Below, piece by piece: positions 9,686 through 15,792 of a DNA stretch of 64,000 bases. The position numbers and the translations under genes are program-made. Positions within the stretch are counted from its first letter, which is position 1; every line of letters starts with the position of its first letter. The notes under the pieces were generated by a model. It ran no database searches. It was not told where the DNA came from and worked only from the letters and a program-made list of their open reading frames with translations. Source of the DNA: Mayamaea pseudoterrestris (lineage: Eukaryota); the NCBI GenBank assembly GCA_027923505.1, contig BROI01000005.1, forward strand, positions 868,001-932,000. Reading direction: 5' to 3'.

Positions 9686-9778
9686 AAGACTTTCCGACCT
9701 GCCCTCAATCTTCCACTTTTGGATTTCAAGGCAACCTTGACACAAACCGAAAAGATTGAGGGCAGGTCGGCAAGGCCT
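9686..9778. other. Long hairpin / inverted repeat
   Basis: CCGACCTGCCCTCAATCTT (9694-9712) is the perfect reverse complement of 9752-9770. There is an inner stem TCAAGG-caa-CCTTGA. Confidence 0.85.
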
Positions 9779-10102
9779 TGTTAGAACAGAGGTAACTGTA
9801 CTACAAAATGGGAAAGGCAACATGAACAGAGTCGACCAGTCCAGCACTCGTTTTAAGCGCCAATCCAAGCGGTTCCATGTTGAGGCCAAAGAGAAATAGG
9901 AGAAAAAACCACAGGATCCATAGCCTCGATTATGATAGCTAAACAGGCTGCTAGCGTGTTGGGTGCATTGAATTTGATTGCCGCAGGGATGGTGACGTCG
10001 TGGCTGGCGAGTGATTGCTTTCGCTGGCTTGCTTCATCAACCACCACAAAACTCGGGCAGAAAGAAATATATCTTTTTGGCGCCCCCCCAAAAAAGAAAA
10101 CT

Positions 10103-10304
10103 TAGAATATATCTTGCGCGCCCTTGAAGCGACACTAATGATTAAGCAGAACAGAGTCAATAAAACCACTTTACTTATTTTCTCCAAGAAGTGATCGTCC
10201 TCGATCCACTCCTTCGGTTGCCGCTTACCGCGCTTACTTAAATGTGACCGTCTTCGTGACGTCACCGCTGCCGCTTCGGTTTGGGTTCTCATCCATGCTC
10301 AACA
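10103..10304 (-). repeat. 3' LTR, missing its terminal 9 bp
   Basis: Identity to the 5' LTR stops at ...ATATATTCTA. GATCCAACA is absent and no target-site duplication is visible. Confidence 0.9.
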
Positions 10305-11830
10305 CACTCCTTTGGGCCGAGTAGTACTTACTGCTCGAGGCCAGATTCATAACCAGGTTGCGGAGCTTGCCAAACTGGGCTCCCTGCAATGGTTTCGTGA
10401 AGAAATCCGCGACCATGTCTCCGGTCGGACAATGCTCAATGTTGACTTCACCAGCTGCCACGCGATCTTTCACAAAGAAGTACCGAACATTCATGTGTCG
10501 CGTGCGCTTTGTACTTGAGCTTCTGCCATTCTTTTCCAACAGCATTGAACTCATATTGTCTTGATACAATTTCGTGTCTTTGACCCCGAAACCTTGCGCC
10601 TTCAGAAAATATCCTGTCCACAGCAACTGCGGTAGCACATCATGAACTCCCACAACTTCGCTCTCCGTCGAGCTTCTTGTTACCAACTTCTGTTTAGCCG
10701 ACGTACTGTACACTGATCCTTGGCCAAGTGTCATTGTTCCACCAGTGTGACCCTTCATGTCTGGGTGCACCGCGTACGACGCATCCACCCACCACTGGAC
10801 TATCCCGGACTGGTCCGCCTTCAGCGTCAACACCATGTCCACGCTTCCGCGTAAATATTTAATCACTCTTGCAGCCTTCTTATAGTCGTCTTCGTCAGGC
10901 TGCTGCAGCCTCGTGCTCAAGAAAGAAATCGCTGTGCGAATATCCGGTCGCGCTCGCTGACTCAGATACAGACACTGCATCACAATCGTCACAAAAATCT
11001 GCTTCTTCGCTTCGCTCAACATGACAGGATTTTCCGATATCTGAAACAAGTGACTGGCTGCCGGAGTAGCTGCCGTTCCATCCATGTCGTCTGGCGCATG
11101 ATGCAGGATGTTCTTCACATAGTCAACCATGTTGATTGCTACTTCTCAGGCTTAGTATGGTCAATACCATGCCGAGGTAGTCGTGCACTTTTCCGCGTGA
11201 CTTATTCATTGGAGTCTCCTTGCCAAACTCCTCATCCATCTGCGCGATGAACTCATCCACTACGCTCACGTCGACGTGCGAAATCTTCAAATCGTCCACG
11301 TGCCATCCCACGGTGATTTGCTTCCCATTGACAATCTTGTTGCACACACACGGATCGTACGGGTTCTTCTCGAAGCCCCACTCAAGCAATTTTGCGGACA
11401 ACTTCTCCCAGAATAGTCGCGCTGCTCGAAGCGTACCATAAAGCGCCATGAGTAATTCAACATACATGACTTTCTCGCCATTCTCCATTGTGACGCAAGG
11501 CTCGTACATCTCGCGATCAATTTCCAACAGTAGCTCCACCATCTTCCCAGTGAAACGAACGTGCACCAACTCATCCATTTCCGCTTGCATGAAAGCACCC
11601 GGTACATCAACCACAGCAACCTCGCGCCCTTCCATAGCGTCAATGATAGCTGTCAGAAAGATGGCCTCTGTCGCTATCGTTGGAGATGCTGCGTCTTCCT
11701 TTGCAGTGTATGCTCGTTGCTTGCGTCCATCCGCGCATCCGCGTCCTTTCCCAGTCCCGAATCTCTTGCGCTTGAGAAACATCAAATACGCCAGAGCGTC
11801 CTTGCGCTGCTGCGGAGTCAGAGTGCATTG
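10234..11830 (-). CDS. Copia Pol, part 2 (reverse transcriptase and RNase H), broken by apparent single-base deletions
   Basis: Motifs GCADGRKQR, DVPGAFMQA, ALYGTLRAARLFW, WHVDDLKISH, WVDASYAVHPDMKGHTG and ADFFTKPLQG. Frame breaks occur at ~11825 and ~11145-11165. Confidence 0.92.
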
Positions 11831-14800
11831 GGGACTGCCTTCATGACGTGCCTGTCGTGTAGCTGCTGCATTTCCTTGCGCACTGCCTCCACTCCAGCAT
11901 CGCCAAAAGCCTTTAAACCTTGTCGCATATTCATCTGTGCCGTGACGAGTGGCTCCGACACTTCCTCTGCAGCGTCGAGCGTGAACAAATGAGCGAACGA
12001 GCGAGGTTTGCGCGCACGCAGGCCATACCGACCAGTGCGTGGGCCATAGCGCGCATCGAAATCCTCTTCGTCTGCAGCAGCTGGCACTCCTTCAATTTCG
12101 CCTTCATCGGGCACTCCTTCAATTTCGCCATCATCCACGGCTGGCGCGTCGTCAAGTTCGCCGTCAATGGCCTCACCATCCTCGTCGTTCGGCACTCCTT
12201 CGATTGCGCCGTCAGCACCATCGTCGTCGTCGTCGTCGTCATCGGTCGCATTCACTCCTTCGCTTCCGCCGGCAGAGTCGTCGTCACCGCGAGAAGCGTC
12301 GTCATCATAATCAGAGTCATCATCATCCTCGGCGTCATCTTCGTGCCACATGACTGGCTCAGCAGCCTCCGCAACACGGTGGCGGTCCATGAACACGATG
12401 CCCGGATTGGCCTTCTGTTGACGAGCGAGACGATGCACGCGCTCAATGACATCATCAGGCATGGGCAAAGGCGTAGCGTGCCCACGATTCAGAACTTTGC
12501 CCGAAGACAAACTGAGGAAATAAAACCCACCCTGCACATTACCAGTCGGGCGCAGAGCCAGCGCACCGATCGTGCGCGCCTGCATGTCATTGCTGTGCGA
12601 CTCATGCGTTTGCACATACTGACCAAATTCATACTTGCAATGCCGATTAAAGTCAACTGTCTGACCAGTCACAATAGTGCGTGGACTGAGATCCTTCGAA
12701 ATGCCACGCTCGTTCGGAAACGCATTCAACCAAAACACGGCAGACTTCGTCATTTCGATAACCAAGCGTGCCGGCACGTGCTTAAATGGCAACGTGTTGT
12801 ATGTCGCGCGCACCCGTTCTTTCACGACACGGATAAAACGTTCAATTTCGCCAACGTGTTCATCCTCAGATGTCGCATTGAGCGCCACTCCGAGATCAGC
12901 CAACGCGCCAAGCATTGGAGCGAACTCCCCATCCATCAGAGCCGCGACGACACGGAACCCACCGCGTGCGTAAATCTTCAACACAGACTCGATTGCCTTC
13001 AACATAACCGGAAGCGTACGGTTTTGAATCACCTCAACCGTAGCAAAACGAATGCTGCGGGAGAACGTCACCAACATAGGGACTTTGTTGATATACATGA
13101 TGTCAGCACAAAGAGTAACGTCTCGATAGCGACTCATGATAGCCGGTGGAAGCTGCTCAACAATCGCAGGCTTCACCAGATGCGACGCGCGACGCGTCGT
13201 CTTTCCTTTTAACGAGCCAACATCTGGTCCAAAGATGTGCTCAGCAGCCAGGATGTCGGCCTTCGTCACAGGACAGTTCGGCAACTGATTGCTAGTAACG
13301 ATGCGCAGGTAATCCTTGAGGCTTGGCCGTCCAATTTTGATTTGCAGTTCCCTAGCTCTAACAGCGCGTAAATAGTCATCATTGGTGTAGTTAGTACGGT
13401 TATCGTCTACCGTAGTCAACATCGCCACTCCATCCTTGACATCGCTGCGCTTGCCCTTCGAAAAGCTCTCGCAAACATACAGCCCAGAGTCAGTCTCGAC
13501 AAACTCTCGCTGCTTACCATCCGGCTTCTCCACAACGAACATTGGACGATCCACGCCGTGCATGAGATACTCCACGGTAAACTTCTTGCGGACTTGCGCC
13601 AAACTCAAAATGTTCGCCAGTCCCTGCGGATACCACCACACCGGACCATAGCCCTCCAGGTCGCCCATCATGTTCGTCCTTACTGTACCAGCGTTGCACT
13701 TGATCACCATCCACGTTGGCACCGGGCGAATGTTCGTCAGCATCTTGGCGTTGCAGAACAGATCCACTGTCGACTGATTGTCCAAGAGCACAGCCTTCTT
13801 CGAGATGTTCACCTTCGGCGGCTGCGCGAACATGTATCCGACCTCATCGTCGTCATCGCTTTCTTCCTCGCTACCCAGCGTGAAGTGCTGCGCCCCACTA
13901 GCCTCTGCAGCCGGCGCACTCTCCGTAGACTCCGTTCTCGTAGGACAGTCTCGCTGCACATGACCAACCTGTTGACAGGTCCAGCATCTGGGAGGGTCAC
14001 GCGCTGTACCAGTCGTGTGAAACGCCACGCCCTCGTTCGTTGGCAACGTGGCTTCTCCATCCGCATGCTCACGACGCTGCATGATGTTGTATGCATCGTG
14101 GATCGTCAACGGGAAGTTGTCGTGCCCGTCGAGGTAGCAGTTGCGCAAGTGCTTGCAATACCCAGCGTATTCGCCCGTTGCGCCACGCACGAAAAGCATC
14201 GCAAGCTCGAGCTCTTCGGCGGCCTTGATATCCTCCTTGTTCGCCTTGTTACGATTGTCATCCTTGGCAATGTTCAACGCCACAATCTCGTTGTGCATCG
14301 TGACGCCAACCGCCTTCGCCACGTCTGCCAGCGTGACCATGCTTTCGTAATATTTCTGCAGGCTTTCGCGCGCTCCTTGAGTACGTCCGAACAACTCAGC
14401 TTGAATGTCCACGACTTGATCCACAAGTTTGCAGCGCCCTTCGTACGTATGCGAGATCTCCTTGATAATCGCCAGCAACTTAATTCCGTCCGTGTCCTCC
14501 TCGGCGTCTCGGAACTTGGCGTGCGACTTGACACGATCCTTCATACGCTCCGTGCATTGTCCATGCAACACGGCGTAGAGACCAGCGAGGAAGTCGGAGT
14601 ATACACGCACGCGCTCGACATGCTCTTTCTTGTCGGCCTTGTATTCCTCGAGCATTATGGACCAGTCCGAGTCCGTCGTGTCGGCATCCTTCGTTGGACG
14701 TGCAGGCTCGTCAGGAATCTCCAGTTCCACGTTGCGCATGCCCTTGAGCAGCTCCTTGGTATATTTCTTGTAGGAGCGCCCGACGAAAGTGATGATCTCG

Positions 14801-15078
14801 TTCGTCGTACGGATGAATCCATCGGGATCGCGCGAACCGTTATAGTCGTAGATGAATCCAGCGAGCGTCGGCTCGCTTCCTTGGAAATTTCCACTCGGCG
14901 CACGACTCGGTCCGTTGAGTCTGTTACCATTGCCTTGATTCCCGGAACGATTCCCAGCACGATTCCCACGACGATAATGACGGTTGCGTCGGTTTCCTTC
15001 GCTTGCTGGCGGAGCGGGAGGTGCACCTCCACCGCTCGACGCCGCTCCTGTCGTCGGAGTATTGCTCGTCGAAGACAT
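11818..15078 (-). CDS. Copia Gag-Pol, part 1 (Gag, CCHC knuckle, aspartic protease, integrase, acidic linker)
   Basis: Motifs CWTCQQVGHVQRDC, LLDNQST and the integrase core (ADIMYIN..MDGEF..EHVGEIERFIRVVKER). Confidence 0.95.
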   Translation of the reverse strand: MSSTSNTPTTGAASSGGGAPPAPPASEGNRRNRHYRRGNRAGNRSGNQGNGNRLNGPSRAPSGNFQGSEPTLAGFIYDYNGSRDPDGFIRTTNEIITFVGRSYKKYTKELLKGMRNVELEIPDEPARPTKDADTTDSDWSIMLEEYKADKKEHVERVRVYSDFLAGLYAVLHGQCTERMKDRVKSHAKFRDAEEDTDGIKLLAIIKEISHTYEGRCKLVDQVVDIQAELFGRTQGARESLQKYYESMVTLADVAKAVGVTMHNEIVALNIAKDDNRNKANKEDIKAAEELELAMLFVRGATGEYAGYCKHLRNCYLDGHDNFPLTIHDAYNIMQRREHADGEATLPTNEGVAFHTTGTARDPPRCWTCQQVGHVQRDCPTRTESTESAPAAEASGAQHFTLGSEEESDDDDEVGYMFAQPPKVNISKKAVLLDNQSTVDLFCNAKMLTNIRPVPTWMVIKCNAGTVRTNMMGDLEGYGPVWWYPQGLANILSLAQVRKKFTVEYLMHGVDRPMFVVEKPDGKQREFVETDSGLYVCESFSKGKRSDVKDGVAMLTTVDDNRTNYTNDDYLRAVRARELQIKIGRPSLKDYLRIVTSNQLPNCPVTKADILAAEHIFGPDVGSLKGKTTRRASHLVKPAIVEQLPPAIMSRYRDVTLCADIMYINKVPMLVTFSRSIRFATVEVIQNRTLPVMLKAIESVLKIYARGGFRVVAALMDGEFAPMLGALADLGVALNATSEDEHVGEIERFIRVVKERVRATYNTLPFKHVPARLVIEMTKSAVFWLNAFPNERGISKDLSPRTIVTGQTVDFNRHCKYEFGQYVQTHESHSNDMQARTIGALALRPTGNVQGGFYFLSLSSGKVLNRGHATPLPMPDDVIERVHRLARQQKANPGIVFMDRHRVAEAAEPVMWHEDDAEDDDDSDYDDDASRGDDDSAGGSEGVNATDDDDDDDDGADGAIEGVPNDEDGEAIDGELDDAPAVDDGEIEGVPDEGEIEGVPAAADEEDFDARYGPRTGRYGLRARKPRSFAHLFTLDAAEEVSEPLVTAQMNMRQGLKAFGDAGVEAVRKEMQQLHDRHVMKAVPNAL

Positions 15079-15105
15079 GTCTTTTCACTCGCTTCTTGGA
15101 GAAAA

Positions 15106-15316
15106 TGTTGGATCTAGAATATATCTTGCGCGCCCTTGAAGCGACACTAATGATTAAGCAGAACAGAGTCAATAAAACCACTTTACTTATTTTCTCCAAG
15201 AAGTGATCGTCCTCGATCCACTCCTTCGGTTGCCGCTTACCGCGCTTACTTAAATGTGACCGTCTTCGTGACGTCACCGCTGCCGCTTCGGTTTGGGTTC
15301 TCATCCATGCTCAACA
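15106..15316 (-). repeat. 5' LTR (211 bp, TGTTG...CAACA)
   Basis: Terminal inverted TGTTG/CAACA; 15115-15316 matches 10103-10304. Confidence 0.9.
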
Positions 15317-15792
15317 CAACGACGTTGACTCTCATTCCTTTGGCTACTTCCTCGCCTTGAACTCATCGGCCTTGCACCAGCGCGTAAATTAATCAGACTG
15401 CAATGACGGAGTAATAGATTGGCTGAAGGCAGATTGATATTGCAAGGCGCTTCAGTTGATTTCCCATGGTGTGTCAACGATTCGGCGGCAGCAACCCTTG
15501 CGGCATGCTCATGCTGTCGTTGTCGACGAGCTGGAACACTTCAAGTATCCATGAAACGGAGGATCAGACGCTATATATTGATGGATCTATGACAGCAGAC
15601 TCCAAGGGTCTGCTACGCGGGTAGCTGTACTCCATTTAGAGCGTGTAATGGACTGGAATCCTCGTTTGAGTGAAGGATGCACGCGCATTTACACGGTCGC
15701 TCGCGAGGAACAAAAGGCTCATTTTCAGTAGTGTACACTATTATCTAGCAGTCCATTATCATTAATAACATCATATTATAGCTTGTAAGTGG

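Follow-up and report, generated by a model that had tools for sequence, protein, structure and literature searches.

Complementarity and covariation between the LTR and the primer-binding site suggest self-primed reverse transcription in a diatom Ty1/copia-type retrotransposon

Introduction

The Schizosaccharomyces pombe retrotransposon Tf1 begins reverse transcription from its own RNA: the transcript's initial 11 bases anneal to its primer-binding site (PBS), with an RNase H cut between bases 11 and 12 (PMC7175516 and PMC4600332, both in part). Self-priming is established for Tf1 and Tf2 and has been proposed for the Tf1/sushi group, all of which are Ty3/gypsy elements. The original prediction for the locus described here set this against copia elements, which were said normally to use host tRNAs. 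That holds as a general statement but needs a rider, since self-priming has already been predicted for the TAR lineage of plant Ty1/copia elements, including Houba and Osr-1, where the operational criterion is a complement of at least 10 bp that starts 0–5 bp past the 5′ LTR (PMC6317226, in part).

Two other groups of copia elements are relevant to this comparison. Fungal GalEa elements carry a "conserved hairpin site" in place of a PBS, and, according to the pertinent part of that report, an LTR segment complementary to the site was sought and none was found (PMC5445492). The CoDi elements of diatoms are copia-like, with a single open reading frame (ORF), short TG/CA LTRs, a length of ~5.2 kb and 5-bp target duplications (Maumus et al., 2009; PMC2806351, in part). 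A term search of the main text of the CoDi paper returned no mention of the PBS, of tRNA or of self-priming.

Here we describe an element on the minus strand of a 64-kb window (the whole stretch of DNA analysed, in which position 1 is the first letter). It is a diatom LTR retrotransposon of the Ty1/copia type, recently inserted, whose reverse transcription very probably starts, in the manner of Tf1, from a piece of its own RNA. Like Tf1, Tf2 and members of the Tf1/sushi group, including Tj1 of S. japonicus, it has a PBS directly past the 5′ LTR that complements an LTR segment taken as the 5′ end of its own RNA. Unlike Tf1, it has the copia gene order, with integrase before reverse transcriptase (RT); the pairing arms of the diatom elements are 14–21 nt long rather than 11, pairing starts mostly from the second predicted base, and the diatom case is known from sequence alone. 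With the plant TAR elements it shares the copia superfamily and a self-primer predicted by the same criterion from an LTR-to-PBS complement, the difference being that TAR hosts are land plants and the host here is a diatom. It resembles CoDi elements, by description, in its diatom host, copia-like character, single ORF, short TG/CA LTRs, length of ~5.2 kb and 5-bp duplications. It is like GalEa in being a copia element without a tRNA-type PBS and unlike GalEa in that the LTR complement is its main feature.

Results and discussion

Boundaries of the element and its LTRs

The element runs on the minus strand in the order gag, protease, integrase, RT and RNase H. Within the window copy, an exact direct repeat pairs 15318..15115 with 10306..10103 over 204 nt at 100% identity. 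This repeat stops 9 nt short of the ...TCCAACA at which the original prediction had ended the LTR, because AGTTTTC..., and not GATCCAACA, comes after the 3′ LTR. Boundaries were read from three other sources: the LTR ends of related metagenome loci (L numbers, described below), a contig from X4 and loose contig ends from X2, these being two of four runs of unrecorded type (X1 to X4). Relatives with both LTR ends within a contig start with TGTTG and end with CAACA, with 5-bp target duplications in L004 (ATTAC/ATTAC) and L036 (GCAGC/GCAGC). One X4 contig spans exactly 15106–15316 (211 nt), and loose contig ends from X2 fall at 10305 and 15317. Taken together, these place the 5′ LTR at 15316..15106 (211 nt, TGTTG...CAACA), with the 15-nt complement described below overlapping its last A. 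The predicted ...TCCAACA end is thus right for the 5′ LTR; the 3′ LTR of the window copy (10103..10304) matches the 5′ LTR exactly over its 202 nt but is without the last 9 nt.

TG...CA ends, a polypurine tract and a 5-bp target duplication are all present for the family, as seen in L004 and L036. The polypurine tract region of the window copy, AAAGGAGTG (10305..10313), abuts the 3′ LTR, and the ...AGGAGTG that precedes TGTTG recurs in L004 and L036. A target-site duplication is absent from the window copy, where CGTTG on the 5′ side has no match on the 3′ side, and the 3′ LTR end is aberrant, with 29 nt (10074..10102, minus strand) occupying the expected place of the LTR end GATCCAACA. These 29 nt are rich in runs of T and of G, and 10088–10062, also just past the 3′ LTR, resembles the LTR end. 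In a single X4 contig of low depth, 10073 follows directly on 15106, with the other letters of the contig unaccounted for; we treat this one joint as a lead only to a complete 3′ LTR in X4.

Coding capacity and signs of activity

The coding region is split over three ORF pieces in the present assembly. The first, of 1086 aa (11818..15078), encodes gag with a CCHC zinc knuckle (Pfam zf-CCHC; ORF residues 364–379, ~13942–13989) and then the protease/integrase block. RT follows in a different frame (11126..11785) and is of the copia type (Pfam RVT_2, E 3.9e-16, above the family cut-off). The last piece, of 298 aa (10234..11130), occupies the RNase H position, ends within the 3′ LTR and has no Pfam match. 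Sequence profiles gave no integrase, either from Pfam at E up to 5 or from the PDB sequence profile. An AlphaFold2 model of 12379–13401 (ORF residues 560–900; 15-sequence alignment, mean pLDDT 71.5) gave Foldseek matches of which the best (E 2e-9, probability 1.00) were to retroviral integrases and intasomes, and, judged by this modelled fold, the segment is the predicted integrase region. Because it sits 5′ of the RVT_2 region at 11126–11785, the gene order is that of copia.

Contigs from all four runs carry one extra base after 11146 (C), 11161 (C) and 11829 (G), and the three ORF pieces together with these three 1-nt insertions form a single ORF of 1615 aa, alongside the 1600–1750 aa of the relatives' polyproteins. 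The presence of the extra bases in every run indicates that the frame breaks of the window are assembly errors or mutations private to the window copy. The closest named protein is from the diatom Mayamaea pseudoterrestris (98% identity), and further named relatives belong to Nitzschia, Fragilaria and Fistulifera.

Contig depth was read over 9900–15500. In X3 and X4 it is ~2,800–61,000 over the element compared with 0–8 on the flanks, with LTR depth not exceeding that of the interior, a profile that looks more like RNA than like DNA. In X2, depth is ~1,180 inside and 30–180 on the flanks, with the LTRs deeper. The depths in X2 to X4 suggest very high expression, many copies or both. On the basis of its identical LTRs, the 1615-aa ORF that is intact with the three insertions, and the high depth in two runs, the element looks live. 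One contig each in X3 and X4 follows the LTR and the first 9 PBS nt as far as 15098 and then continues with 221 letters that match nothing in 9900–15500; these contigs may come from an LTR-sharing variant or derivative.

A nearly invariant R-S-V-L lies at the C terminus of the polyproteins (alignment columns 2041–2044; window 10301–10312) and is encoded by AGGAGTG + TGTTG. These nucleotides belong to the polypurine tract and to the start of the 3′ LTR, the ORF stopping ~70 nt into the LTR, and this apparent protein conservation is probably a nucleotide constraint.

A perfect complement between the LTR and the PBS

At the inner edge of the 5′ LTR lies the putative PBS, ATTTTCTCCAAGAAG (15106..15092, minus strand), whose first A is the last LTR base and beyond which the gag ATG (15078) follows after 13 nt. 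It is the exact reverse complement, over 15 nt with 0 mismatches, of CTTCTTGGAGAAAAT (15203..15189, minus strand) within the LTR. The original prediction had described this complement as perfect, and direct reading, a pattern search and a stem search all bear it out. The pattern search of the 64-kb window returned exactly three sites with 0 mismatches: these two and a second copy of the primer arm within the 3′ LTR (10191..10177). Among 100 dinucleotide-shuffled versions of the window, not one reached three matches, even with up to 2 mismatches allowed. The stem is also the sole perfect one of at least 9 nt in the 450 nt examined, and its ends are fixed, with A15204 opposite C15091 and A15188 opposite C15107 and no extension on either side. 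Measured by the plant criterion given above, the window element has 15 nt of perfect complement beginning on the last LTR base.

The predicted RNA from 15204 to 15091 has a minimum free energy fold in which the full stem closes the structure (−31.8 kcal/mol; z −3.68 relative to 200 shuffles). In this fold the remaining predicted R and U5 form an 82-nt loop (15107..15188) closed by the stem of primer and PBS. When the predicted RNA is folded with both arms and a single base outside each of them, the stem closes the structure in all 24 elements that carry it (the window element and the 23 relatives described below). Rfam returned no family at gathering score across the 64-kb window.

The complement is kept, with changing sequence, in related elements

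A search with an alignment of 25 polyproteins as query yielded 80 metagenome loci with 28–57% protein identity to the window element. All 80 loci, 286,088 nt in total, were scanned over their full length for perfect inverted complements of at least 13 nt with loops of 20–150 nt, which yielded 27 stems. Twenty-three of these have the layout found in the window, and four lie elsewhere (L004 17276, L017 2407, L037 1607 and L066 5040). In 16 of the 23 loci, and likewise in the window, the second arm starts on the last A of the LTR-terminal CAACA; in the other 7 it starts directly after CAACA, CAATA or TAACA. The first arm lies 29–126 nt upstream of the second. Arms are 14 nt long in 6 loci, 15 nt in 10 loci and the window, 16 nt in 6 loci and 21 nt in L055, and pairing is perfectly Watson-Crick in all 24 stems. 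The LTR ends of L004 and L036, fixed by their target duplications, put the second arm exactly at the U5 border.

The sequence of the arms is far less constant than their position. The 24 elements have 22 distinct arm sequences, the only shared ones being those of L017 and L036 and of L060 and L061, and L009 differs from L032 by a single compensated change. We measured covariation in 17 of the 24 elements, namely the window element and 16 loci with loops of 86–126 nt. For these 17 sequences RNAalifold predicts the LTR–PBS stem alone, with compensatory changes in 13 of its 14 pairs. Alignment cells are paired in 93.6% of cases, compared with 57.0% in shuffles, and the covariation score of 0.859, compared with 0.224 in shuffles, was matched by none of 500 shuffles. 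When the partner was shifted by 1–3 columns, 37–61% were paired. The unpaired cells of the alignment are due to one-column register slips, each element being perfect in its own register. Sister elements had been named by the original prediction as a check on its proposal that the element primes itself. Across them, 23 of 80 loci retain a perfect complement of 14–21 nt while its sequence differs, with the covariation just described, and the self-priming reading is thereby supported.

The 57 loci in which no stem was found are mostly short contigs that start inside the polyprotein. The contigs of L003, L011, L026 and L037 start at most 54 nt before the junction, so that the first arm would fall outside them. 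Three loci (L065, L067 and L080) have 700 nt or more of sequence before the expected gag start, yet the stem is absent from them even with mismatches allowed.

Further structure was seen around and away from this stem. CTRGTTTAC after the first arm is common to most long-loop elements. By eye, the R-U5 loops of the long-loop elements have two small recurring hairpins with covarying stems, one directly past the primer arm (e.g., TAGTTT...AAACTA vs TGGTTT...AAACCA) and one in U5 (e.g., TGTCT-CAT-AGACA vs TGTTT-TAT-AAACA); they are reminiscent of the extra structures required in Tf1 primer cleavage. L017 (2407–2519) and L037 (1607–1717) have a second perfect inverted complement, of 15 and 13 nt, respectively, with a loop of ~85 nt, in the coding region just before the integrase block. 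These coding-region stems differ between the two loci by one change, compensated on both arms.

A predicted transcription start beside the first arm

Transcription initiator sequences follow the consensus YYANWYY. The TCACTTC of the window matches this consensus with A15204 as +1. An initiator-like TCACTT with an AT-rich element upstream was part of the original prediction, and both are present, TCACTT at 15206..15201 and CATTTAAGTAA at 15256..15246, which is 42–52 nt upstream of A15204. TCA, part of a conserved (C)TCA motif, lies at or directly before the first arm in 20 of the 24 elements, the remaining four having CCA, TTA, TTA and ATA. The A of TCA is the first base of the arm in L014, L016, L019 and L071 and the base before the arm in the other TCA elements, so pairing in most elements starts one base past TCA and not on it. 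RNA is accordingly predicted, from motif and position, to start at A15204, the A of the conserved TCA that adjoins the 5′ side of the primer arm. Relative to this predicted start, U3 would comprise ~112 nt (15205..15316) including CATTTAAGTAA, and the arm (15189..15203) would be RNA nt +2 to +16.

Contigs from X1 bear on the RNA ends. They cover 10166 to 15193 only, with nothing on the flanks, on 15194–15316 or on 10103–10165, and the two ends of the cover have just 16 nt of LTR sequence in common. An overlap of 16 nt is shorter than the word overlap of the assembler. The cover is shaped like a transcript running R-U5...U3-R, a weak hint given that contigs do not prove RNA ends. Its ends and their short overlap would thus tentatively put the RNA 5′ end at 15193 to ~15208 and the 3′ end near 10166, and the contig end at 15193 lies 11 nt downstream of the predicted start. 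If the X1 ends are RNA ends, R would therefore be ~27 nt long, of which ~11 nt would be left after primer cleavage, which is short for the first strand transfer. The unitigs of X3 and X4 break at the LTR borders and are uninformative on the start.

Alternative explanations for the stem

We next consider whether the stem could have a role other than that of a self-primer. It might be a structure of the 5′ leader, acting in packaging, dimerisation or translation control, while the real primer is a host tRNA or tRNA fragment at the same or a nearby site. Long-range stems are frequent in the leaders of retroelements, which speaks for such a structure. There is also precedent in copia lineages for priming by half-tRNAs (PMC6317226, in part), and, as a tRNA gene scan gave no hits in the 64-kb window or in loci L001–L060 of the 80, these sequences offer no tRNA gene for comparison. 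Against this stand four features of the elements. The site adjoining the LTR is wholly different between the 22 arm variants, so that no single tRNA fits them; it does not start with TGG; and perfect Watson-Crick pairing over 14–21 nt in 24 of 24 stems is more in keeping with a site copied from its primer than with a helix that is merely selected. The fourth is the little space left before the gag ATG. We estimated this space, with the gag ATG guessed, in the 18 stem-bearing loci among 27 chosen for a match from query residue 199 or lower. The second arm lies 2–56 nt from the guessed ATG in 16 of the 18 loci, 142 nt in L002 and 259 nt in L004, the tightest gaps being 2 nt in L015 and 7 nt in L056. 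Judged from these distances and the 13 nt of the window, the arm apparently fills most of the space between LTR and ATG and leaves no room for another PBS. We consider a leader structure combined with a tRNA primer quite improbable.

A second alternative accepts the LTR segment as the primer but has it act in trans or originate from somewhere other than the capped 5′ end, for instance from abortive or processed LTR transcripts or from the R copy near the RNA 3′ end, so that RNase H would cut no fold-back. The identical arm in the 3′ LTR would be compatible with this, as would the fact that the start at A15204 is a prediction. An intramolecular primer at the RNA 5′ end is the better fit for the initiator-like TCA conserved directly before the arm and for the loop that constantly folds back in 24 of 24 elements, and, counted from the predicted start, the X1 cover breaks off 11 nt into the RNA. 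These features make a primer of this other origin highly improbable. That the stem is due to chance, or is an inherited inverted repeat without a role, is scarcely credible: the A+T-rich arms raise the background of inverted repeats, but only 4 other stems of at least 13 nt occur in 286,088 nt compared with 23 at one position, and neither the covariation (0 of 500 shuffles) nor the count of matches (0 of 100 window shuffles) was equalled at random.

A model for self-priming

Self-priming from the RNA 5′ end is thus the reading that we carry forward, and it leads to the following model. Transcription would start from the A of the conserved TCA in the LTR (A15204). Nucleotides +2 to +16 would then fold back, with the R-U5 segment as an 82-nt loop, and pair with the 15 nt whose first is the last LTR base; the potential for this pairing is seen in the sequence and covaries across relatives. 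By analogy with Tf1, the RNase H of the element would cut past the paired stretch, and the 3′ end of the short RNA released in this way would be extended through U5 to give a minus strong-stop DNA that starts with (T)GTTGG.... Copying ...CAAC from the 3′ end of the arm gives just this (T)GTTGG..., which fits the observed LTR end CAACA. In a last step, which follows the general retroviral scheme, plus strong-stop DNA would copy the primer while it is still attached, so that the PBS is rewritten from the primer. Such recopying would account for perfect pairing in spite of the drift of its sequence between families.

The position of the second arm is central to this model. Because the 3′ end of the primer defines the LTR end, primer binding must take place at the site next to U5. 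Here that site differs by family yet always matches its own LTR at a fixed, start-like place, which is the Tf1 arrangement. With 22 arm sequences in 24 elements, one host tRNA provides no explanation, while self-priming of the Tf1 type does. The diatom copia element, which like at least 23 relatives from environmental DNA carries such a site, thus most likely provides the primer for reverse transcription itself, in place of a host tRNA. Against self-priming stand the three loci that lack the stem, the short R that the X1 ends would give, the start of pairing one base past TCA in most elements, and the missing target-site duplication and aberrant 3′ LTR end of the window copy.

A broader proposal concerns the lineage as a whole. 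A deeply diverged group of diatom copia elements (80 loci, 28–57% identity) may have abandoned tRNA priming, with the first ~15 bases of its own RNA as primer and a PBS that is rewritten in each cycle, so that the pair drifts freely as a family-specific, self-matching tag. In this general form we regard the proposal as doubtful. If it is true that the whole lineage self-primes, these elements would need no host tRNA and would escape any host control aimed at primer-binding sites of the tRNA type.

Relation to described elements

Within the accessible portions of the literature on self-priming, on diatom LTR retrotransposons and their primer-binding sites and on self-primed copia elements, we found no published case of self-priming in a diatom element. 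Self-priming in copia is not new in principle, having been predicted for plant TAR, and the diatom case appears, from these portions, to be unreported. What the present analysis adds is a concrete priming model for retrotransposons that form a major group in diatoms; its start (A15204), primer (15203..15189) and PBS (15106..15092) are all predicted. Whether self-priming is an ancestral trait of copia or a recurrent one can now be asked with a second copia lineage, from a distant host group. Convergence with Tf1 was proposed in the original prediction; should plant TAR prove to be a relative, self-priming may instead be old within copia, and no late convergence.

There is also a practical consequence for annotation. 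An LTRdigest filter that keeps only LTR candidates with a tRNA-type PBS has been used on diatom genomes (PMC7466962, in part). Pipelines that filter in this way may discard elements like the one described here, which a search for self-complementarity between LTR and PBS would recover.

Other repeats in the window

Two further repeats were seen outside the element. About 330 nt past the 3′ LTR lies a perfect, G+C-rich inverted repeat of 19 nt with a 39-nt loop (9694–9712 / 9752–9770). At 1163–2963 the window contains a tandem array of ~11 copies of a 169-bp unit that are 75–91% alike.
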